25,392 nt of DNA from the NCBI GenBank assembly GCA_038227875.1, contig JBBRPR010000091.1, positions 1 to 25,392 of the forward strand. Reading direction: 5' to 3'. Shown here piece by piece: positions 7,357-19,336 of this stretch (positions are counted from its first letter, which is position 1; the number at the start of each line of letters is the position of its first letter). Made by a program: the position numbers and the translations under genes. This DNA is from Planctomycetota bacterium. GTDB taxonomy: Bacteria; Planctomycetota; SZUA-567; H5-PLA8. The notes below the pieces were generated by a model, which did not search any database, had not been told where the DNA came from, and saw only the letters and a list, made by a program, of their open reading frames with translations.

Positions 7357-7433
7357 GGGTGTCTCCTTTTCAAAATGGATTTGAGTTCGTTAGTGTAGTG
7401 GTCAGCGACCGAAGCGCTACTCGCTTGCCGCGA

Positions 7434-7506
7434 TGCAGGCGGGACGCCTGGACCACAATTTGGTCTGGCAGGGCGCTAACATTGTGGTGCAGGCGTCCCG
7501 CCTGCA
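7434..7506. repeat. REPIN-like inverted doublet
   Basis: 26-bp arms tgcaggcgggacgcctggaccacaat (7434-7459) and attgtggtgcaggcgtcccgcctgca (7481-7506) with one mismatch. Each arm is itself an imperfect palindrome. Confidence 0.8.
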
Positions 7507-7522
7507 GATTTGAGGACGCGCG

Positions 7523-10500
7523 CTATTGTTTCGGCGCGACGCTGGTGCCGGTGGCGATGGTGTAGACGCCGGCGGTCGTCTGTACGGGCAGCTTGACTTC
7601 GACGTTGCGGGAGCCGTTGGCGCGGGCCTGGTCGAGGTAGATCACTTCAACCAGTTCGCCTTCGAAGAGCGAGAGCGTCTTGGGATCCGGTTCGCCGAGG
7701 TTCAGGTTGGTGCGGATCGCGCCTTCGAAGATGCCGGTCTTCTCGCCGGTCTCTTCCAGCGTCACGACCTTGGTGTCGCCACTGCCGCGGGCCTTGACGG
7801 TGACGGCCAGCTTGTCGCGGCGCTTGTCGGAGAGATTCATGTCGGCGTCCATGACGCGGATCTTCAGCGGTTCGCCGATGGTCAGCGACCCGGATGCTTT
7901 CGCGTTCTCGCCGGTTTTCAGATCCGCGGTGAGTTTGTCGACGACTTCGAGTTTCCCGTCGGCGCCTGCCAGCAGCAGGTCGCCCCAGGTGTCGGGATGT
8001 TCGCTGGTGCGGACGGCGGAGGTGCCGGCCCAATAGTAGTAGAGCGGCGTGCCGGTGCAGATCGAGAGGTTCATACCGATGATGCGGCCGGGCTGCGCAC
8101 TGAAGTTCTTGCACATCTCGAAGGGCAGATGCACTTCCATGGTCCAGCCGTCGGCGGTCTTGGTGGCGGTGCGCTGGATCTGCGCGGAGGTGTAGGTGGG
8201 CATCGAGAGTTCGCCCTTCTCATTGAAGATCGCTTCGCCGCCGACGACGTTGTCGTCGCCCTGCATGCCGAAGGGCCAGATCCAGAACTGCTGCGTCCAC
8301 TTGCTGCCGCGGCCCTTGTCCTTGGTGTTGCGCGCGTCGAAGAAGATTTCAATGGCGTCGCCGTCCCAGAAATTTGCCGGGCGGACTTTGGTGATCTGGC
8401 CGTCGGCGTCCTTGACGTCGTAGAAGAAGTAGATGCCCGTGTTGTCCCAAGCGAGTTTGACGAACTGCGGCTCGACGATTTTCAGATTCGCGCCGGCGCC
8501 GTCGAGTTCCTTGTGCATGGAGACGGCGGGAATGTCCTTCCACTTCTCGGCCTTGCCGTCGAGCTTCATCGGTTCGCGCAGGTACGGAATCGCGGTGAAG
8601 TACTTGGTCGCGAACTTGGGCTTGTACGGATCGGTCTTGGCGGGCACCCCGGCCACTTCGCCGGTCGACGGCGGCGGAACGAGCATCACGCCGTAGCTCA
8701 TGCGGTCCTTGATTTCCTCGGCCGTCGAGGCGTCACCTTCCGCGCCTTTGCGTTCGAAGACTTCGCCCTGCGCGGCGGCCTGGTCGCGCGTGTGGATTTC
8801 ATCGGTGAGCTTGGCGTGTTCTTCCTTGTCGTATTTGTAGAGTCCGCGTCCGCCGCCGGTGCCTGCGCCGCGTCCGCCGGAGTTGCGCGAAATCGCGTGC
8901 TGGCGCAGACCCGCCACGCCGCCGGGACCGCCAGCGTTGCCGCCGAGTCCGTTTCCGCCTGCCCCGCCTGCTCCACCCGCGCCGCCTGCGCTGGCCGAGC
9001 CTGAAGCGCCTGCCGCGCCACCTGCGGCGCCGTTGTTCTTTGCGCCGGCCATGCCGCCGGCTCCGCCGCCATCACCGCTCTCTTCGCCGTCGCCCGCGCC
9101 GCCTTCGAGGAAGCCCATGCGTCCGGCTTTGACATTCTTGCTGAGATTTTTGACGCGAGCCAGCAGCCCGGCGACGTTACCCGTGCCGCCGCCACCCTCG
9201 CCACCGTCGCCCTCGGCGCCGTCCGCGCCCGCAGCACCGGCCGCTCCGGCGGCGCCCGCGGCGCCGTGTTTGCCATGGCGTCCATTCGGGCCGTGCGCGG
9301 CGGCGATGTCCGTGCCGGCGATGCCCAACGCAACGTCGTCTTCACCGGCGTTGTTGGTGACATCGGAGAGATTTTTGTCCGCGAGGCCTTCGACGGCTTT
9401 CTTCAGCTTGTCGCCGACGGCCTTGGAGCGCGCCGCGTTCTTGTTGTCGGTGGCGTTGGCCGCGCCGAGGTTCTCGCTCTTGTCGAGCGCGTCGGTGCTG
9501 GCGTCGCCGGCGTGAGCGAGGCCCGGCACTTTGCTCTTGAGGAGTTCGTTGACCTTCGCGCGCACTTCCGCGACGGCCGCGTCGTCGGTGATGCCATCCT
9601 TGTTCAGCGAGCTGGCGAAGGCGTCGCCGAGTTTCTGGGTCAGGCGCGGCACCGCGTTCTGTTCGAAGTTCTGTTTGAACTTCTCGTCCATGGCGCTCTT
9701 AATTTCGCCGTCCTTGAGTTCCTTCATCACCGCGCGGGCCAGCGCGCTGGGATCGAACTGCGCCTTGTCGGCGCTGTCGCGTGCGGCGGTGGCGGCATCG
9801 GCGAGTTTCTTCGCCGCGTCGGCCGCGTCGGCAACGTTGCTGCCCATGCCGTCGAGGTTGCCGTCCTTGGCGGATTGTTTGGCCGCGCCGATTTTGCCTT
9901 CGGCGGCCTTGCCTTCATTGTTGGCGGCGCCGGCGACCTGGTTGTGGAGATCGTCGCCGAAGGACGAGGCCTTTTCGGCGGCCTTGCCCAGTTTGGCGTT
10001 GGCGTCCTTCAATTCGTTTTCGGCCTGGTTGACGGTGCGCGTTTCGTTGGCGACCACGCGGCCGGACTGCGCATCGCCGGTCTTGCCTGCATTGGCGGCC
10101 GCAGCTTCGGCCTTGCCGATGCGATCATTGATACCCTTGAGGCCCGCAACGGCGGCGTCGGCCTGTTTTTTGGCATTATCGAGATCGGCTTTGGCGGCCG
10201 CTTTGTCCTTGGCGTCGCCCGTGGAGCCGTCGATCGCGCCTTTCAATCCGGCGATGGTGTCGTCGAGTTTCTTCGCGGCATCACCGGCGGCGGCGACATG
10301 TTTGCGCGTGGCGTCGCCGTCACCCTTTGCGGCGGAATCTTTCGCGCCGCCGATCTCCTTCGAGGCGGCTTCGCCGTCATTCTTCACCGCGTTGTCGATC
10401 TTGGCCTTGACGTCCGCCGCGCCGACTTTCTCGCCGGCCTTCTGGATGCCGTCGAGCGCCGACTTGACCTGGTTCTCCGCCTGTTCGATGCCCGCCTCTT

Positions 10501-11332
10501 CGCCTTTCACCAGTGTGCTGGCGCGTTCGGTGGCGTCCTTCTTGGCCTGGGAATTCGTGGTGTCGGCGTTCTTGATCCGTTCGGAAGCCGCAGCGAGGTC
10601 ATCGCGGGCGCGTTCGGCCTGCTTGACGGCGGCGTCGAGGTTGTTCTTGAGATCGGTGCGTTCGCGTTCGACCAGGTTCTTCTCATCGCGCACGATCGCC
10701 GCGCCGGCCTGCTGCAGCGGGACGCCGACGGCGCGTTCGATGTTCTTGCGGTAATCATCGGCGAGCTTCGGGACGATGTCCTTGTCGACGGCATCGATAA
10801 AATCCGCGGCGAGGTCCTTGGCCGCCGAGCCGGAGAGGTCGCGTTCGAGTTCCGTGACCATCGCGCCTTTGACGTCCTGGAGCTTGGCTTCCAGATCCGC
10901 ATCGGAGGCTGTGGCGCTGCCGAGTTCCGTGGCGTAGTTGTTGAGCTTGTCGTCGATGCCCTTGACCACGTCCTTCCAGACCTTGTCCTTGGAGTCGTTG
11001 GAGAGGTCGTTCTGGACGATCTTCTCGAAGTCCTGCTTGATCAGGTCGGCGACTTCCTTTTTGCTCGCTTCCAAGTTGAGCTTCTTGGTCTCTTCGCGGC
11101 CCTTCTTTTCAGCCTCTTTGAGCTGGAGCGCGACGCGCTTTTCTTCTTCGAGCGCCGCGATTTCCGCCTTGTGTTTCACGTACGCCGGCACGCCCCAGCA
11201 GACCAGGAAGCCCAAGTGCGCGCCCGCGGAGAGAATGATGAAGACGCGGAGTTTGGTGATGATGGGGCGCGGAGGCGCGACCACGACGGTGGGTTCGACG
11301 GGCGCGGTCTCGGGTTCGGCGACGGTGGACAT
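7523..11332 (-). CDS. 1269-aa TonB/TolA-like membrane-anchored protein: SxxxH TM helix, long helical region, Gly-rich linker, CBM9-like domain, C-terminal Ig-like domain
   Basis: SD gaggag precedes ATG at 11332. TM segment IILSAGAHLGFL. CBM9/DOMON-like motifs KLDGKAEKW, KLAWDNTGIYF, FWDGDAIEIFFD, GWTMEVHLPF and PDTWGDLLL. The terminal domain has IRVMDADMN and LEETGEKTGIFEG. Lies directly after exbD. Confidence 0.8.
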   Translation of the reverse strand: MSTVAEPETAPVEPTVVVAPPRPIITKLRVFIILSAGAHLGFLVCWGVPAYVKHKAEIAALEEEKRVALQLKEAEKKGREETKKLNLEASKKEVADLIKQDFEKIVQNDLSNDSKDKVWKDVVKGIDDKLNNYATELGSATASDADLEAKLQDVKGAMVTELERDLSGSAAKDLAADFIDAVDKDIVPKLADDYRKNIERAVGVPLQQAGAAIVRDEKNLVERERTDLKNNLDAAVKQAERARDDLAAASERIKNADTTNSQAKKDATERASTLVKGEEAGIEQAENQVKSALDGIQKAGEKVGAADVKAKIDNAVKNDGEAASKEIGGAKDSAAKGDGDATRKHVAAAGDAAKKLDDTIAGLKGAIDGSTGDAKDKAAAKADLDNAKKQADAAVAGLKGINDRIGKAEAAAANAGKTGDAQSGRVVANETRTVNQAENELKDANAKLGKAAEKASSFGDDLHNQVAGAANNEGKAAEGKIGAAKQSAKDGNLDGMGSNVADAADAAKKLADAATAARDSADKAQFDPSALARAVMKELKDGEIKSAMDEKFKQNFEQNAVPRLTQKLGDAFASSLNKDGITDDAAVAEVRAKVNELLKSKVPGLAHAGDASTDALDKSENLGAANATDNKNAARSKAVGDKLKKAVEGLADKNLSDVTNNAGEDDVALGIAGTDIAAAHGPNGRHGKHGAAGAAGAAGAAGADGAEGDGGEGGGGTGNVAGLLARVKNLSKNVKAGRMGFLEGGAGDGEESGDGGGAGGMAGAKNNGAAGGAAGASGSASAGGAGGAGGAGGNGLGGNAGGPGGVAGLRQHAISRNSGGRGAGTGGGRGLYKYDKEEHAKLTDEIHTRDQAAAQGEVFERKGAEGDASTAEEIKDRMSYGVMLVPPPSTGEVAGVPAKTDPYKPKFATKYFTAIPYLREPMKLDGKAEKWKDIPAVSMHKELDGAGANLKIVEPQFVKLAWDNTGIYFFYDVKDADGQITKVRPANFWDGDAIEIFFDARNTKDKGRGSKWTQQFWIWPFGMQGDDNVVGGEAIFNEKGELSMPTYTSAQIQRTATKTADGWTMEVHLPFEMCKNFSAQPGRIIGMNLSICTGTPLYYYWAGTSAVRTSEHPDTWGDLLLAGADGKLEVVDKLTADLKTGENAKASGSLTIGEPLKIRVMDADMNLSDKRRDKLAVTVKARGSGDTKVVTLEETGEKTGIFEGAIRTNLNLGEPDPKTLSLFEGELVEVIYLDQARANGSRNVEVKLPVQTTAGVYTIATGTSVAPKQ

Positions 11333-11360
11333 GAACTCTCCTCGATAGGACGAACTCTTA

Positions 11361-11518
11361 AATCTCACGCAAAGCCGCAAAGGCGCAAAGAACGGCACGA
11401 ACAGAATTTTGTGTTATTGGTCTTACACCGAAATCGCGTTCCACTGGCTGGGTGCGATTCCCGATTCTATCCAAAAGCAGTTGCCGTTCTTTGCGTCTTT
11501 GCGGCTTTGCGTGAGATT
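11361..11518. repeat. Inverted-repeat element (37-bp arms built of cgcaaag units, 84-nt spacer)
   Basis: aatctcacgcaaagccgcaaaggcgcaaagaacggca at 11361-11397 and its reverse complement at 11482-11518, with one mismatch. Confidence 0.85.
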
Positions 11519-11525
11519 GAAAACC

Positions 11526-12020
11526 TCAATTTGTCTTTTTCGGTGCCGCATCGCTGCCCGCATTGCCTGCGTCGACCTGGAAGCTCACGTTGCGGATGCC
11601 GGCGACTTTTACTGCGTTCCAGACTTGCATCACGACCTGGTACTTGGCGTCCTTGTCGCCGGCGATGACGACGGCGGCTTTCTTCTGGGCTTTGTCGCTC
11701 TCATCTTTGTACTTCCTCAGGTCGTCGACCAGTTCGGTCAGGCTGCCGTAGAAGTCTTCGGATTTCTTCGAGCCGCGTTTGGCGACCTGGCCGTCGGCGT
11801 TGACGGCGACCGTCCAGGCGTCTTCAGTCAGGATCGTTTCGGCGGCGGAGTTGGTCTTCAGTTCGGGCAGATTCACTTCCATGCCTTCGATCTGCTTGAT
11901 CGAGGGCGCGGTGATCATGAAGATGACCAGCAGCACGAGCATCACATCGACCATGGGCGTAACGTTGATTTCCGCGACGGCGCGTTTCTTGCCGCCGGTC
12001 GTTCCGGCGCTCATCCCCAT
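11526..12020 (-). CDS. exbD: ExbD/TolR family biopolymer transport protein
   Basis: EINVTPMVDVMLVLLVIFMITAP (with the conserved Asp) and IAGDKDAKYQVVMQV motifs. ATG at 12020 abuts the exbB stop. ExbD versus TolR cannot be resolved here. Confidence 0.93.
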   Translation of the reverse strand: MGMSAGTTGGKKRAVAEINVTPMVDVMLVLLVIFMITAPSIKQIEGMEVNLPELKTNSAAETILTEDAWTVAVNADGQVAKRGSKKSEDFYGSLTELVDDLRKYKDESDKAQKKAAVVIAGDKDAKYQVVMQVWNAVKVAGIRNVSFQVDAGNAGSDAAPKKTN

Positions 12021-12021
12021 G

Positions 12022-12801
12022 TTAGTGGCCCTTTCCCGCGACGGCGACTTCGGCTTCCGCGCGAGCTGGGGACTGGCCTTTTTCGGCGTGCTTGCCATTG
12101 CTGGTGGTGGGGCGGGGTTCGGCGCTGCTCAGGCTGTTCTCACTGCGCACGGCCAGCGCGACGCGTTCGATGAACATGTCGCAGGATTCCTGCAGGCTGT
12201 CCATCTTGGCCAGCAATGCGTTGTAGGCCATCACGGCGGGGATGGCGACGGCCAGGCCCATGGCGGTGGCGATCAGCGCGGCGGCAATGCCCGGCGCGAC
12301 CACGGAGAGACTGGCGGACTTGGCATCACCGAGGTTCTGGAAGGTCGACATGATGCCCCAGACCGTGCCGAAGAGACCGATGAAGGGCGAGGCGCTGGCG
12401 ACGGAGGCCAGGAATCCCAGGCCCCAGCGGATGGTGTTGAATTCGGCCTTGCAGGTGTGGTTCATGCGCTGATGGATCTTGTCGATGTAGTCGTCGGGGT
12501 GGCTGGCGGCGAGGACGCGGGCCTGCGCGGCGGCCTCCATGCCGGCCTTGTAGATGGCGTTGAGCGGCGCCGGGGCTTCGGCGGCGAGGACGGTGACGTT
12601 CATCACGCTGCGGCTGTCGTCGAAGAGCTTGATGAAGGCGTCGTTGTTCTTCTTGGCCTTGGAGATGGCCTTGATTTTCATGAAGATGATCGCCCAGGAG
12701 ACGATCGAGAAAAGGATGAGCATGTAGAGGACGCTCTGTTCGAGCGGACTGGATGAGGCAACCGACTTGGTTACCAGTTCCCACATTGAGGTGTGCATCA
12801 C
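12022..12801 (-). CDS. exbB: MotA/TolQ/ExbB proton channel family protein
   Basis: LILFSIVSWAII, ASASPFIGLFGTVWGIM and PGIAAALIATAMGLAVAIPA motifs. Start is GTG 12801 or ATG 12798. The sequence looks TolQ-like, so the symbol is tentative. Confidence 0.93.
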   Translation of the reverse strand: MMHTSMWELVTKSVASSSPLEQSVLYMLILFSIVSWAIIFMKIKAISKAKKNNDAFIKLFDDSRSVMNVTVLAAEAPAPLNAIYKAGMEAAAQARVLAASHPDDYIDKIHQRMNHTCKAEFNTIRWGLGFLASVASASPFIGLFGTVWGIMSTFQNLGDAKSASLSVVAPGIAAALIATAMGLAVAIPAVMAYNALLAKMDSLQESCDMFIERVALAVRSENSLSSAEPRPTTSNGKHAEKGQSPARAEAEVAVAGKGH

Positions 12802-14085: not shown

Positions 14086-15888
14086 TTATATAAAGCAACC
14101 ATTGAGCCCGAAAATCAAGGGAAATCTGGTGAATGAGCTAATTTGAGCAGGAATGAGAGCGAATGATAGCAAATGAGCTGAAATGAGCAGGTTTGAGCGT
14201 AAATGAGCGCGTTTGAGCAGGAATGAGCGTGAATGAGCAGGAATGAGCGTGAATGAGCTATCGAACGACCATTTGATGTTTTTCGAGGTGTATCCAGTGA
14301 TTTTTGTCGGCATGCCTTTGAATCGAAACCAGCCTTCCTTTTCACCGCGAAGGATTTTACACAGAAGTCGATTCCAGCCCTTCTCAACCTGCATGGTAAA
14401 CCAGTGGCAATTATTCCGTCCCAGCGCGTAGGTAAAGCCTTTTGTGTCAGTATACACTTCTTTCCCGTTGCACCAGATTTTCATTCCGCCCCGGTGTTCC
14501 ACTGACAGATCAACCGTTCCCGCTTCGTCAAAATACAGATACGAGTGCGCATAGGCGACCTGATTCGGAGCGGTCCAAAGACTGGGCTCTCCAGCCTTAT
14601 AGTGTGTAATCCAGCCACTCTTCCACTGGTGGTCCTGAACGGACTTACCTTCCTCAGCAGCCATTGCGGCTTCATTAGGCACAGTCTCGCTTTTCAGCGT
14701 CGCTTCGGAGTCCTCTGTGCCAGGGAATGGGCCCAGGATCTGGAACTTTGCACTGTGGCCCTCGTCCAGCATGCCAAAGGTCGAGTAAATAAAGGGCGCA
14801 TTGGGATTGAAATCAAGAGCATCCGGACCGGGTTTGTCGCCAGTGGGCTTGGCCGACTGAATCCGTCCGGTCCCAAATGGACCGTTGAGCGTCACGCTCC
14901 AGGTTTTGGGCGGCTTCGCACCAGCATAAAGCCCCGTCCCGTCGCCACGAAATCCCACCGGATGTTCAAGAGATGGCATGAAGTCGGCATCGCCAAGTAC
15001 GGGCGCCGATCGTTTAGGTGTATCCACTTTCGGATCGCCGGACTCTATCGGCGTCACTTCAGTCAGGGGTGCGTGCTTGTGGGAAAGTGAGATGGCTGTG
15101 CCCGTCAGGGTCACCACTACAATACCGCAGACAAATTTGAACATGACGCTACCACCTTTCAGGGAGGTCGAACCTGTTGAGGAGTTTGCGCCGAAGGTAG
15201 CGGAGCCACTCAATTCACCTTTCGCGGCAAGATGACTAAGCCCGGTGGCCAGACCCGCGGGAATAACATCCTGCGGAGTCGAAGCCATGGCCGTGACCAA
15301 CCCCTCAGCAGTTAATGGGTAGCCCGCATAGTTCAAAGTGGCGCGAAGAGTGTCCAAACCCCGTTTGATTTGATTGCGAACGGTGCTGCTGGGCAGGTCG
15401 AGCATTGAGGCAATTTCGCCGGGTGTAAACCCTTCGCCGTGGCACAACCAGACAGAAACACGGTTCTGCTCCGGCAGATCGTATAGGGCTTCGGACAACA
15501 TTTCCCTGAATTCACTGCTGAGTTCTGTACCTTCGGAAACGGTGGCGGGCAGAGTTGCAGCCGCGCGTTCACGGGCGGTCCTTCGTCTTTCCGTGCGAAT
15601 TTTTTGGCGACAACTGTTCACGACAAAACTCATCACCCATCTCCTTGGCGTGGATTTCCCAGAATGGAAGTCCCCGGCATGCCGCATGATTTCACAGAAT
15701 GCTCCTTGCACGGCGTCCTCGGCGTCGGCGGTATTATTGAGCAGACGTCGCGCCATCCGAAAGGCGGAGTCCGCGTGCAGTCGGAAGAACTCGCCGAGTG
15801 CGGCACGATCATCGTGTTGTGAAAACTGAAGCAACAGATGTTCGTCGGGTTCACGTAGCGTACGCACCGGTGCTTCTTCATCCGTCAT
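14086..15888 (-). pseudogene. Membrane-anchored ECF sigma factor fusion, C-terminally truncated (beta-propeller lost)
   Basis: Sigma2 (DAEDAVQ), sigma4 (LPEQNR...EIASMLDLPSSTVRNQIKRG) and a TM helix are present. It is collinear with 16364..19336 up to NIKWS (about 14266), then reads through a decamer repeat to a fortuitous stop. It could still be expressed. Confidence 0.75.
14131..14260. repeat. Tandem array of 13 degenerate 10-bp units (consensus gaatgagcNN)
   Basis: gaatgagcta atttgagcag gaatgagagc gaatgatagc aaatgagctg aaatgagcag gtttgagcgt aaatgagcgc gtttgagcag gaatgagcgt gaatgagcag gaatgagcgt gaatgagcta. Confidence 0.95.
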
Positions 15889-16121
15889 CGTGATCGCTCC
15901 GCGTCAACTAATATTAAAGGGCCGCTAATCGTATTGGCGTCTCAAGAATTCTATGAATTATCAACGAGTTGCTCACGTTAAATCGGCGCGTGTCGAGGTG
16001 CGATGTTACTTAAAGGCGAACGACTCCATCGGCTGTCCCTCTGGTGGTACAACTCACAAGCCCTCTTATTGCCGAGTTGGCCTTTGGAGGCCGCACAATC
16101 CGATACGAATCAGATCGATGA

Positions 16122-16259
16122 GCTGATTTATGGTTTTCCAAGCTCTTTAGCACATCCAGAACGCTAGAGGAAATTCAGATAGATATCACCGGAGTGACTA
16201 AGCTTGAACTGGAGACTAAGTGCAGTGGCGATGATAGTTCGCACACGCATTATGAATAA
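16122..16259 (+). pseudogene. Possible NPCBM/NEW2 carbohydrate-binding domain fragment
   Basis: Reads ADLWFSKLFSTSRTLEEIQIDITGVTKLELETKCSGDDSSHTHYE*, which resembles the NPCBM C-terminal strands (vDvtG..LeL). No start codon, and an in-frame stop lies just upstream. Confidence 0.4.
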
Positions 16260-16363
16260 AAACAGAGTTGAAGAACTGAAGCCTCCGTTGGACTTAAATC
16301 GAAAACCTCTCCCAAGCGCTATAGGGTCGAATTGATAGGGTGCCTTGCCCTCGCCTGGCGACA

Positions 16364-19336
16364 TCAATGTTTGGCCTCGTCCTGGATGCAGTAAAGGTTT
16401 GCTCCGCCGCGCAGGTAAATTCTATTGCCATCGAATACAGGCGAAGCGAAGAAACTTTCCTGGCTTACGAATTCAGCATCTATTGATTCAATATAATTGA
16501 ATCCAGCTTCCTTGTATTGCGGTCCAGGCTCCACAATCACGACACCTCCAGTATTCTCAGTAATGAATATATTTTTTCCGCCAAGTGTGGGGCTGGCACA
16601 GATGCCCCAACTCCCACGGTTGCAGTTCGTGTATTTATCGAGCCGCTTGCGATACAGCTCCTTTCCGTCTTTCACATCCACGGCGATGATTAAGCCCATT
16701 TCGTCAACGGCATAGAGTACATCCTTCACCAGCAACGGTGAGCTGATGTAGCCTGCGTGGTAGAGTGGGCCGAGTCCCGCCCCGGGACTTTTCCAGAGCT
16801 TCTCAGCCTCAAGCATCCCATCGGGTTTGACTTTCAACCGGGCCGCCGTCAGGTCGAAAAAGACAGTGTCACCGGCCACCACCGGCGTGCTGCACGCGCC
16901 GCCACCAAACATGCCATCATTTGCAGCGCTCTGCCACAGCACCTTGCCATCCGCCAGCGAGAAAACGGAGTGATTCACCACCACCGGAGCAGTGCCGACC
17001 TGCATGGCGACAGGAGAACACCCCATGCCCCAACCCAGATCCCGGCTCGGCGCTTTGTATTCCCATATCGTCTTGCCCGTCAGCGCATCTAATGCAATCA
17101 TCGAGAGGCCGAACGTGCAGATCAGCCTGCCATTGGCAAGGACTGGAGAAGCATGATTGCCGTGCTCGGGTGCGCCAAGCAAAAGGTTGCGAACCCATCG
17201 GATTTCTCCCGCCAGATCGTAACAACAAACGAGGTTTGCTCCGACATCGCGTCCGCCCCCAAAAGTGGCGTAGACATACTCTCCGTCGCTGCTCGGCGTA
17301 TAGTTGGCTGTACCGGCGTCATTTTCCTGCATGCGTGGATATAACTTACGGTCCAACTTCATGAACTCGCCCTCGATCTTGCTGGCCAAACCTCTCCGCC
17401 CTCGGCCGTTATTAACGATCGCCTCCTGTTGTTCCCAGGTGGGTCCTGCAGGCGCGACTGCATTATTAATGAGTTTTACGACGTCCTTATCGGACTGTCG
17501 CAGTTGCTCGACCAATGGCTTGATGACACTCTCGATTTCCGGATGTGCTTCCTTGTCTTTTGGTGAGACCGCATCGAAGAAGGTGTGCGATTTCATCCAA
17601 AGAACTTTTCCGCTTTGCCTGTCGAGACATAAAAGATCCGATATCCCCGCGGTCACGAACAGTTTGTCGCCGACCACGCAAAGCGAGGCGCAACTTCCCC
17701 CGGGCATGCGTGTGGTCCATGCCAAATTGTGGCTGTCGTATTCGATCGGCATTTTCGGCCTCAGATAGGCCGCGAAATGCCACTGCGACTGTTTGGGATT
17801 GTTGCCCACATTCGCCACCGCCTTGTCGCACGCAACCTTGACCAGCAGCGTGTTCCAACCGGCTTTCAGTGCGATTTCAGTGTTGGGCCGCCAGGGATCC
17901 CTGAAATTTCCCTTTACCGGAATTCCATTTAGCCACACCTTCAAGGCCTTGCCAGCTACCCACATTTGCATCAGGAGCTTGCCATCGGTGGGCGAGTAAA
18001 GACGCGTGAATCCATAGCCCACCTGTTTGTCGAGTTCGCCGAAAGCCCAGACAAAATCGACATTGGGCTTATCGCAGGTCCCCTCGTTAACCGCCTGATT
18101 GTTCTGTGTTTCGATTCCAACATGCACTTTCTTCCAGACACCGACTCCGGCCTTGTCCCCGGCATTGGGATCAAGCGTTGCATCCTCCGTGATGAATGCC
18201 TGCTCGATGTCCTTCTCTGGATCTGTCACCGCAAATGGCCCGGCCACCAGCCAGTCTTTGATGATGCCCAGTTCCAGGCGCGCGCCAGACACAGTCGTAT
18301 TCTTGTCTGGCCGGGTGTTCTGGTATCGGATCTCATGAGTCAGGCCCTTTGCCCAGCGTCCCCATTCCAGCGGTGGCGTGGCACCCGGATAGCGGCCGGA
18401 CCCATCACCGCGCCAGCCGATTGGCCGTTGGAGCGAAGGAGAAAAGTCAGGCGAGCCCAAGAGGGCTTTGTCGCTTCCGGAAACAGGCGCCGTCGGCTTA
18501 TCGCCGGCTCCCCGCGCGTCCCCGGCGTCGGCGGCCTGAACGGCCAGGGATGGCTTGCGCGTAGCCACGTACGCTGTTACGGCCGTCAGCGTCAGCGTCA
18601 GCGCCAACGCCACGACGGCGACGCCTTTAAACGCGAATCCGGAGGCCGCCAGCGCTGAGCTTCCCTTGGCGACTGCGAGTGCCTGGCTACCAAGCGCGGC
18701 TAGGCTCGCGGGGGCCGGAGCCAATGGAGCGGTGGCGACCAGTGCGGCCATCGCCGACGTGGATGCGACCACGTATCCGCGCGCGACCAGTTGCGTCCGG
18801 ACCATCTCGATGCCGCGATGAGAATGATCGCGAACCGTGCTGACCGGCTGGGCCAGAGCGCCCCCGATTTCCTCAAACGACAACTGCTCGAGAAAATGCA
18901 GCCAGACTGGGACACGGTAGGGCTCAGGCAGCTCGCGAACGGCCTGCACTGCTTCGTCGCGGAGCTGCGCCTCGTCGGCGGCCTCGTTATCCCGTCGCGC
19001 CGCGGAGAGTTTCAGCTCGCGCCGATGACGCCGCGCTTCTTCGCGAACCTTGCGTTGAACGGAATGAATAACGATGCCCATGAGCCATCCTCGCACTGAT
19101 GTTCCCCGCCGCTCATCGAAGCGGCATTTGTGGGAGACGATTTGGAGGAATGCTGCTTGGACGGCGTCTTCGGCGTCCGCGGCGTTGTGGGTCATGGCCA
19201 GCGCCAATCGATAGGCACTGTCGCTATGCCGCGCAAACAACTCGCCTAACGCGTCGGGGGCGCCCTTGGCACCGAAGCGGCGCAAAGCGTCGAGATCGCT
19301 GGGTTGAGACTCGGCTACGTCCTGGCAACTCTCCAT
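16364..19336 (-). CDS. Membrane-anchored ECF sigma factor with extracytoplasmic PQQ/BamB-like beta-propeller and inserted beta-sandwich domain
   Basis: Sigma2 DAEDAVQAAFL, sigma4 LPEPYR...EEIGGALAQPVSTVR and TM GVAVVALALTLTLTAVTAYVA. Propeller motifs LCLDRQSGKVLW, ASPVLANG, ALDALTGKTIW and ASPVFDGNRIYLRG. SD gggag. Confidence 0.9.
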   Translation of the reverse strand: MESCQDVAESQPSDLDALRRFGAKGAPDALGELFARHSDSAYRLALAMTHNAADAEDAVQAAFLQIVSHKCRFDERRGTSVRGWLMGIVIHSVQRKVREEARRHRRELKLSAARRDNEAADEAQLRDEAVQAVRELPEPYRVPVWLHFLEQLSFEEIGGALAQPVSTVRDHSHRGIEMVRTQLVARGYVVASTSAMAALVATAPLAPAPASLAALGSQALAVAKGSSALAASGFAFKGVAVVALALTLTLTAVTAYVATRKPSLAVQAADAGDARGAGDKPTAPVSGSDKALLGSPDFSPSLQRPIGWRGDGSGRYPGATPPLEWGRWAKGLTHEIRYQNTRPDKNTTVSGARLELGIIKDWLVAGPFAVTDPEKDIEQAFITEDATLDPNAGDKAGVGVWKKVHVGIETQNNQAVNEGTCDKPNVDFVWAFGELDKQVGYGFTRLYSPTDGKLLMQMWVAGKALKVWLNGIPVKGNFRDPWRPNTEIALKAGWNTLLVKVACDKAVANVGNNPKQSQWHFAAYLRPKMPIEYDSHNLAWTTRMPGGSCASLCVVGDKLFVTAGISDLLCLDRQSGKVLWMKSHTFFDAVSPKDKEAHPEIESVIKPLVEQLRQSDKDVVKLINNAVAPAGPTWEQQEAIVNNGRGRRGLASKIEGEFMKLDRKLYPRMQENDAGTANYTPSSDGEYVYATFGGGRDVGANLVCCYDLAGEIRWVRNLLLGAPEHGNHASPVLANGRLICTFGLSMIALDALTGKTIWEYKAPSRDLGWGMGCSPVAMQVGTAPVVVNHSVFSLADGKVLWQSAANDGMFGGGACSTPVVAGDTVFFDLTAARLKVKPDGMLEAEKLWKSPGAGLGPLYHAGYISSPLLVKDVLYAVDEMGLIIAVDVKDGKELYRKRLDKYTNCNRGSWGICASPTLGGKNIFITENTGGVVIVEPGPQYKEAGFNYIESIDAEFVSQESFFASPVFDGNRIYLRGGANLYCIQDEAKH

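Follow-up and report, generated by a model that had tools for sequence, protein, structure and literature searches.

A candidate proton-motive exbB-exbD-X machine of Planctomycetota whose TolA/TonB-like arm ends in a CBM9-fold and Ig-like head

The stretch of DNA analysed in this study (the window) comprises positions 1 to 25,392 of contig JBBRPR010000091.1 in assembly GCA_038227875.1, 25,392 nucleotides (nt) from a Planctomycetota bacterium. It carries three genes, exbB, exbD and a long third gene called X here, which are arranged in tandem on the minus strand as determined from the window open reading frames (ORFs) and Pfam. This order had been claimed in the original prediction, made from the sequence letters without database searches, and was upheld by the coordinates and by matches to PF01618, PF02472 and PF06452. 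The ORF of X spans 7523-11398 from a GTG, while ATG 11332, the start position in all nine homologs of X in the alignment, gives a product of 1269 amino acids (aa), and the residue numbering of X follows this 1269-aa form. The true start of exbD is probably ATG 12020 (about 164 aa), 1 base past the exbB stop, because exbD homologs begin with MGMS. The sole Pfam family in X was PF06452 CBM9_1 (E 2.4e-13, residues 925-1123), with a score of 50.8 bits against a cut-off of 23.4. The genes and the parts of X are as follows.

12022-12801, minus strand: exbB/tolQ-like motor subunit (PF01618 MotA_ExbB, E 2.1e-35; 259 aa from GTG 12801, with an ATG at 12798)
11526-12098, minus strand: exbD/tolR-like motor subunit (PF02472, E 2.3e-28; longest ORF 190 aa)
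7523-11332, minus strand: X, putative TolA/TonB-like transducer with a CBM9 and immunoglobulin (Ig)-like head (1269 aa, stop codon included)
11189-11251, minus strand: single N-terminal transmembrane (TM) helix of X (residues 28-48), then the conserved WGVPAY (S35 at 11228-11230, H39 at 11216-11218)
9263-11179, minus strand: Ala/Lys/Asp-rich arm of X, residues 52-690, assigned by composition
8753-9262, minus strand: Gly-rich linker of X, residues 691-860 (33.5% Gly)
7964-8602, minus strand: CBM9-fold domain of X, residues about 911-1123 (PF06452, model and fold searches)
7571-7963, minus strand: terminal Ig-like domain of X, residues about 1124-1254 (DxDMN ... EETGxxTGxFEG ... YxDQ signature)

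The only strongly hydrophobic helix of X, residues 28-48, reads LRVFIILSAGAHLGFLVCWGV, and the translation around it is LRVFIILSAGAHLGFLVCWGVPAY. The codons of S35 and H39, which form a Ser-x3-His (SxxxH) motif in this helix, lie exactly where the original prediction had placed them, and its A/K/D-rich arm and Gly-rich linker were likewise confirmed by the residue composition of 53-690 (20.1% Ala, 12.5% Lys, 11.1% Asp, 6 Pro and 52 Gly) and 691-860. The longest runs free of Gly and Pro in the arm are 66 residues, and the arm is helix-favouring as judged from its composition. In a 10-sequence alignment (see below), the Gly-rich linker is interrupted by a conserved island, AGLLARVKNLSKNVKAGRMGFLEG. 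BLAST self-comparison revealed no internal repeats in the arm, no Pfam family was found in the arm, the linker or the Ig-like domain when pieces were scanned to E = 10, a PDB sequence search with residues 1-879 returned nothing meaningful, and an ESM Atlas search gave no usable match. The Pfam families MG2 and GerPC (arm, linker and Ig pieces, E ≤ 10) and the NCBIfam model Firmicu-CTERM (18.8 against a cut-off of 50) matched X only below threshold and were rejected. The suggestion that so long an arm suits an enlarged periplasm is speculation.

A word-indexed search recovered nine relatives of similar length to X, and in the resulting 10-sequence alignment S35, H39, G47, P49 and Y51 were invariant in all ten sequences. 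A scan of one genome per species yielded 42 loci besides the window. About half of these match full-length X and are from Planctomycetota, several labelled Phycisphaerales, Tepidisphaerales or Brocadiaceae, and the others match the C-terminal module only and are from Planctomycetota, Verrucomicrobiota, Lentisphaerota and one bin labelled Anaerolineales. SxxxH lay inside a single N-terminal helix in 35 of the 36 proteins whose start is on the contig, that of the window included, the only exception being the protein of locus L055, which has Ser-x3-Tyr. The arms of a distant group of 21 loci are Glu-rich and could not be aligned with the arm of X. An exhaustive profile search over 1.84 billion cluster representatives produced 10015 matches at E ≤ 0.001 and 601 at E ≤ 1e-30, part of the latter being unrelated Ig-repeat giants. 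Among the best 150 library matches, 93 contained the whole module once, at the C-terminus, and 69 of these 93 were full-length-like, that is, at least 850 aa with a Met start. Of these 69, 67 had the N-terminal helix and 64 had SxxxH in it; the five without the motif consisted of two without a helix (probably wrong starts), one starting MH, one with AxxxH and one with SxH. As controls, none of ten other CBM9_1 proteins examined in the window's genome had such an anchor, all ten carrying signal peptides, and the ordinary TonB of the same genome carries SxxxH. The window's genome (G000) has 22 CBM9_1 matches, and the ten ORFs examined span 640-1347 aa. A search for other heads with X region 20-260 returned seven matches, all of the X family, six of them with CBM9_1 on record. 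The relatives of X are publicly named 'hypothetical protein' or 'sugar-binding protein', the latter being the name of the RefSeq Cerasicoccus relatives.

All-against-all ORF clustering of the 42 loci and the window identified exbB and exbD as the only conserved neighbours of X, the remaining clusters being antisense shadows of exbB/exbD/X or present in at most five loci. In the close group, exbB-exbD was directly upstream of X in all 16 loci with upstream DNA, and five further loci end at contig ends. In the distant group the order was reversed, with exbB-exbD directly downstream of X, and the motor was adjacent in 16 of the 18 evaluable loci, which represent Planctomycetota, Verrucomicrobiota and Lentisphaerota (the exbB-like start of L062 is cut by the contig end; L051 and L065 were outside the evaluable set). 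The original prediction had proposed surveying homologs of X for exbBD linkage and for SxxxH, and both proved conserved with few exceptions. In five further genomes, all ten X-type genes had an ExbB match no more than about 4 kb away on the same contig (coordinate reading), and genomes with two to five X copies have a separate motor for each copy. As it recurs in dozens of genomes, the exbB-exbD-X arrangement is no chance association. Among the genomes sampled, the X family turned up in 14 of 201 from Planctomycetota, all three other genomes of the window's own family being among them, and in 2 of 151 from Verrucomicrobiota, each count taking in the centre genome; these counts are lower bounds, with 9 to 12 candidates scored per genome. 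Knock-outs and ligand screens are within reach, since the carriers Cerasicoccus maritimus and C. fimbriatus are in culture.

The motor subunits of the window resemble TolQ and TolR. The best NCBIfam match of ExbB was TolQ (TIGR02796; 199 bits against 132 for ExbB, with a TolQ cut-off of 221), and so was its best PDB match (116.6 bits against 103 for ExbB). ExbD best matched TolR in NCBIfam (104 bits against 53, with a TolR cut-off of 127) and in PDB (47 against 41), all NCBIfam scores of the motor falling under the equivalog cut-offs. S32, T146, T179 and P188 of ExbB were invariant in all 28 X-linked sequences, as were the transmembrane D51 (long-ORF numbering), T47 and P48 of ExbD in all 27. 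In a 2026 review of the cryo-EM structures (PMC12905483), which is also the source for the roles of the motor residues (ExbD/TolR Asp, ExbB/TolQ pore Thr, TM1 Ser and TM3 Pro), the transducer's Ser and His are described as touching a Ser and a Trp, both conserved, in TM1 of ExbB/TolQ, with a link to the conserved Pro of TM3. Since SxxxH is kept in X and the TM1 Ser and TM3 Pro are invariant in ExbB, both sides of the known transducer-motor interface are, at the sequence level, conserved in the X systems. A complex model of two ExbD 36-190 and X 24-100, run without controls, gave a score of 0.00 and a mark of 0.32. The window's genome has seven MotA/ExbB-family loci, including flagellar MotAB, and its TonB has no ExbB match on its own contig.

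The last 390 residues of X were modelled, on a 40-sequence alignment, as a CBM9 fold plus an Ig-like domain with a mean predicted local distance difference test (pLDDT) score of 90.2 and a predicted template modelling (pTM) score of 0.87. Foldseek aligned the head model with 1i82_A (E 3.9e-10, target template modelling score 0.72), VIA-align did so with Z 19.6 and a root-mean-square deviation (rmsd) of 2.6 over 179 of 189 residues at 21% identity, and a sequence profile found 1i82 in PDB at E 1.6e-14. The Ig-like domain, which in X reads DADMN ... EETGEKTGIFEG ... YLD and contains 13 invariant columns in 29 sequences, was aligned by VIA-align with the Nitrosopumilus surface-layer (S-layer) protein 8c8k_A (Z 15.0, rmsd 1.8 over 116 residues, 24% identity), which the sequence profile matched at E 1.1e-9. 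The two independent fold searches (Foldseek and VIA-align) and the PDB profile search thus agree on the CBM9 and Ig-like folds, and the CBM9-like and terminal Ig-like domains of the original prediction were both borne out. That prediction had named a TonB_C fold at the C-terminus of X as evidence against itself; neither TonB_C (PF03544) nor the TolA-III families had a Pfam match in X, even at E = 10 on separate pieces, and CBM9 and Ig-like folds fill the model. TonB and TolA C-terminal folds were also missing from the fold-search lists of the head, an absence that is no proof alone, and no vWA Pfam family was found in X. The sugar clamp of CBM9, which we take to be Trp71 and Trp175 in the Thermotoga protein, was placed on X at the sequence level, by profile alignment. 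At the first clamp column X has Trp, and 39 of 40 sequences are aromatic there; the second is Ser in X, with Trp in 13, Phe in 8, Tyr in 7, Ser in 9 and others in 3 of the 40. The Cerasicoccus protein is one of the relatives that are aromatic at both columns.

Taken together, these observations suggest, at a probability of roughly 0.6, that exbB, exbD and X encode a dedicated proton-motive machine of three proteins in which X is the arm that transmits force, its CBM9 and Ig-like head holding a target. That X is a motor-coupled transducer is, in our estimate, very probable, and that its target bears carbohydrate, as an envelope glycan or a substrate polysaccharide, has slightly less than even odds. 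Following the solved TonB-ExbBD and TolAQR complexes, proton flow through an ExbB5-ExbD2 stator would be turned into movement via the ExbD Asp and two ExbB Thr, and the helix of X would sit on the rim of the ExbB pentamer, where Ser35 and His39 would pack against the Ser of TM1 and the Pro of TM3. The pull would be carried by the Ala/Lys/Asp-rich arm of about 640 residues and then by the Gly-rich tether of about 170 residues, and the CBM9 and Ig-like head would stand in for TonB_C/TolA-III, holding the target at or beyond the cell wall.

Several observations weigh against this interpretation. Of the TonB motif Ser-x3-His-x6-Leu-x3-Ser (SHLS), only the Ser/His half (S35 and H39) is kept in X, Trp46 and Ala50 occupying the Leu and Ser positions. 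X has no clear D-box or motor box, the ExbD-binding strand found in TonB 10-15 residues past the helix, helix-type sequence following directly after WGVPAY with no disordered stretch, and no conserved outer-membrane partner gene lies beside X. In the tree, the ExbB partners of the X family fall into two deeply separated types: the ExbB of the window clusters with two paralogs from the same genome (support 96/93), and L025, L027 and L029, the X proteins of which are most similar to that of the window, use the other type, about 20% identical to the window's ExbB. An exchange of the motor apparently took place in the history of the family, and the anchor appears compatible with more than one motor lineage. 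Of the distant loci, two (L055 and L066) among the 18 evaluable ones have no adjacent motor; L055 lacks both the anchor His (Tyr instead) and the motor, and L066 retains SxxxH, its neighbours including heparinase-like, GH95 and other sugar-related genes. Sugar binding by the X of the window is doubtful because its second clamp column is Ser, as in eight other sequences of the 40. Finally, a universal housekeeping role for X is unlikely because the family is patchy.

Two of these points, the missing D-box and the motor-less distant relatives L055 and L066, would also fit a static X, an inner-membrane-tethered periplasmic lectin or scaffold whose adjacency to exbBD reflects co-regulation or assembly rather than force. 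We regard this account as very improbable: a polar Ser-x3-His is kept in the lone helix despite unalignable arms (35/36 loci and 64/69 library representatives), the contact residues of ExbB are invariant, and the relative without the His (L055) is also without the motor.

If X is the arm of a proton-motive machine, two cellular jobs can be tentatively proposed for it, energised handling of polysaccharide and Tol-like tethering of outer layers, which we hold about equally likely. The patchy distribution, the paralog expansion and the lectin-type head point to polysaccharide handling, as do some glycan-active neighbours (heparinase-like and GH95 genes beside L066; a malectin-domain protein encoded in the window). 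A bolder version, a 'lectin-headed TonB' whose arm, with no TonB-dependent barrel, would grip polysaccharide directly and haul its chains into the periplasm or across it, appears rather unlikely. If true, it would supply the energised step for the receptor-independent 'selfish' polysaccharide uptake of Planctomycetes, the mechanism of which was called unknown in the available parts of a 2018 study (PMC6474216).

In the Tol-like alternative, X would replace TolA in bacteria without TolB-Pal, its head gripping a peptidoglycan, outer-membrane or S-layer component, and the motor would use X to hold or draw in the outer layers in growth and division, which is conceivable and no stronger than the polysaccharide role. 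The TolQ and TolR best matches, the tolQ-tolR-tolA-like gene order, the separate motor of each X copy as in Tol, and the resemblance of the Ig-like domain to S-layer domains are all consistent with it. The arm also resembles domain II of gamma-proteobacterial TolA, which is Ala/Lys/Asp-rich in the available parts of Williams-Jones et al. 2025 (Mol Biol Evol 42:msaf138; PMC12204202), a study that described vWA-headed transducers by structure prediction. TolB and Pal were not matched above cut-off in the genome of the window, which is 88% complete (best matches 83.5 bits against 343 and 73.7 bits against 125, respectively), and the supplement of PMC12204202, in its available parts, notes no pal in Planctomycetes. 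A keeper of this kind is harder to reconcile with a family found in only 14/201 and 2/151 of the sampled Planctomycetota and Verrucomicrobiota genomes, with the several paralogs of some genomes (e.g. five X-type genes with the full Ig domain in genome G100), and with the lack of a TolA-III domain or a CpoB-, TolB- or Pal-like neighbour. Given the patchy spread and the paralogs, an accessory job fits better than a core one.

The Ig-like domain was surveyed in the genome of the window and five other genomes. In G000, its profile matched only three other places, all in two tetratricopeptide repeat (TPR) proteins of 764 and 2677 aa encoded directly upstream of another ExbB-ExbD pair (locus L098, contig 1, 26500-46400). 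The same succession, an ORF of TPR-protein size (about 760 aa), a giant one (about 2600-2700 aa) and then ExbB, was also found on contig 1 of genome G066 and contigs 85 and 128 of genome G202. Overall, four of seven non-X Ig-bearing loci were motor-linked, the other three having no ExbB on the contig. In the available parts of PMC12204202, the vWA systems of the Planctomycetes-Verrucomicrobia-Chlamydiae (PVC) group adjoin an uncharacterised TPR gene. Because of this adjacency and the motor linkage of the Ig-bearing TPR proteins, the Ig-like domain may be an element common to motor-linked periplasmic proteins of the PVC group. In a second bold reading, the Ig-marked PVC set (X and the giant TPR proteins next to other ExbB-ExbD pairs) would act on one common envelope structure. 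At 13960-14355 of L098, 3' of the second ExbB-ExbD, a 131-aa ORF has one membrane helix reading AVVVH and a Pro/Lys/Ala-rich tail without a head; it looks like a TonB-like stub by its sequence features, and a DUF4159 protein is encoded after it. Giant proteins of 1500-7800 aa (P0013-P0035 and others) carry 9 to 47 Ig-like stretches and are presumably surface-layer or adhesin proteins.

In Myxococcus gliding, a TolQR-type Agl motor works with TonB-like Glt proteins. A comparable role for X, in which the motor drives a lectin/Ig adhesin arm in surface movement or adhesion, is in our estimate very improbable. It would accommodate the X-type Ig domain in giant repeat proteins (up to 47 matched stretches), and gliding was suggested for the vWA-headed family by its authors in the available parts of PMC12204202. 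However, X has no part that crosses the outer membrane, Glt-like or secretion genes are not conserved beside X, and the genome of the window has flagellar genes.

Two further features border X in the window.

11345-11525, no strand assigned: dispersed inverted-repeat element in the exbD-X spacer, with two arms of about 37 nt about 85 nt apart
7420-7514, minus strand: long hairpin just 3' of the X stop, a copy of a second dispersed palindromic repeat

The dispersed element accounts for the length of the spacer between exbD and X, 193 nt here against a few tens of nt in relatives. The arms of this element have 120 matches on many contigs of the window's genome, which marks it by sequence as a repeat like the repetitive extragenic palindromic (REP) or miniature inverted-repeat transposable elements (MITE), outside the machine. 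The fold of 7400-7525 reached -66.4 kcal/mol (z -5.98), with none of 200 shuffles equally stable, and the hairpin-type palindrome has 34 matches in the genome; an Rfam match to mir-612 was below threshold and reflects mere hairpin likeness. The hairpin is likely the 3' end of the operon, and from the spacing and this stable hairpin past the X stop, exbB-exbD-X looks like a three-gene operon. No TolB, Pal or TonB-dependent receptor was found by Pfam among the 18 window ORFs scanned, in keeping with what had been claimed for the window. Upstream of exbB, at 14086-19336 on the minus strand, lie extracytoplasmic function (ECF) sigma factors fused to large C-terminal regions of 600 and 990 aa, the latter with a pyrroloquinoline quinone (PQQ)-type propeller. 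Related ECF fusion genes adjoin the X operon in three other loci of the 42 (L028, L040 and L049), and they may merely be common in these genomes.

To our knowledge, Ton/Tol-type proton-driven transducers were known until 2025 with one kind of head. On our best reading, X represents a third head type of TonB/TolA-class transducers, after TonB_C/TolA-III and vWA, that combines a carbohydrate-module fold with an S-layer-type Ig domain. The Ser/His anchor would then be a transferable coupling module, open to combination with widely differing working ends, and the X operon offers a concrete, testable energy-coupled machine for the poorly understood PVC envelope. If the head binds glycans, this would be the first Ton/Tol-type motor acting on carbohydrate rather than protein. 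The full-text literature search returned no description of a CBM9- or DOMON-headed transducer within its coverage. The term 'CBM' had no match in the main text of PMC12204202, and in the available parts of its supplement a term search gave no CBM-headed transducer, the only mention of CBM9 concerning a flanking gene of a Fibrobacteres locus. The claim of a separate class in the original prediction therefore stands for the motor linkage and the absence of TonB_C, and is qualified by the vWA-headed SHLS transducers described in 2025 (PMC12204202, available parts). Its ExbBD-TonB framing holds in that X is of TonB/TolA style, whereas the motor and the arm are nearer to TolQ-TolR-TolA.

Of the two classical systems, X is closer to TolQ-TolR-TolA than to ExbB-ExbD-TonB; with the former it shares the motor-motor-transducer order and the TolQ/TolR best matches of the motor, and like TolA it has a single N-terminal Ser-x3-His helix and a long, Ala/Lys/Asp-rich, apparently helix-favouring domain II. 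On these motor matches and the arm, which is not Pro-rich, X is by sequence criteria more TolA-like than TonB-like. Unlike TolA, X has a CBM9 and Ig-like head without TolA-III, does not keep the Leu and Ser of SHLS, and has a far longer arm with an extra Gly-rich tether; unlike in Tol-Pal, tolB, pal and cpoB are missing from the window, and the genome has no match to them above cut-off. With ExbB-ExbD-TonB it shares a 5:2-type motor family, the essential Asp and Thr and the Ser/His anchor. Unlike TonB, it lacks a Pro-rich domain II (638 residues hold 6 Pro), TonB_C and an adjacent TonB-dependent receptor, and each X copy comes with its own motor; the genome of the window has a normal TonB elsewhere (SxxxH and TonB_C, 70 bits). 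The vWA-headed transducers, as presented in the available parts of PMC12204202, are the nearest published proposal and resemble X in the anchor helix of SHLS type, of which X keeps the Ser/His half, the head other than TonB_C/TolA-III, the adjoining tolQR-like genes, the occurrence in Planctomycetes and Verrucomicrobia and the unknown function. They differ in that the modelled head of X is CBM9 plus Ig-like and not vWA, in that domain II of X is eight-fold longer (about 800 residues against about 100), and in that the X operon has a single exbD instead of two and lacks a TPR gene. The CBM9 module of Thermotoga maritima Xyn10A (1i82) has the same fold and Pfam family (CBM9_1) as the head of X; it belongs to a secreted glycosidase, whereas that of X is tethered to the inner membrane on a putative transducer arm and has Ser at the column of the second clamp tryptophan. 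The Ig-like domain shares its fold and the DxDMN ... ETGxxTGxFEG ... YxD signature with the S-layer Ig domains of Nitrosopumilus maritimus (8c8k), which occur in many copies in the archaeal lattice protein, whereas X carries one copy at the end of a membrane-anchored protein.

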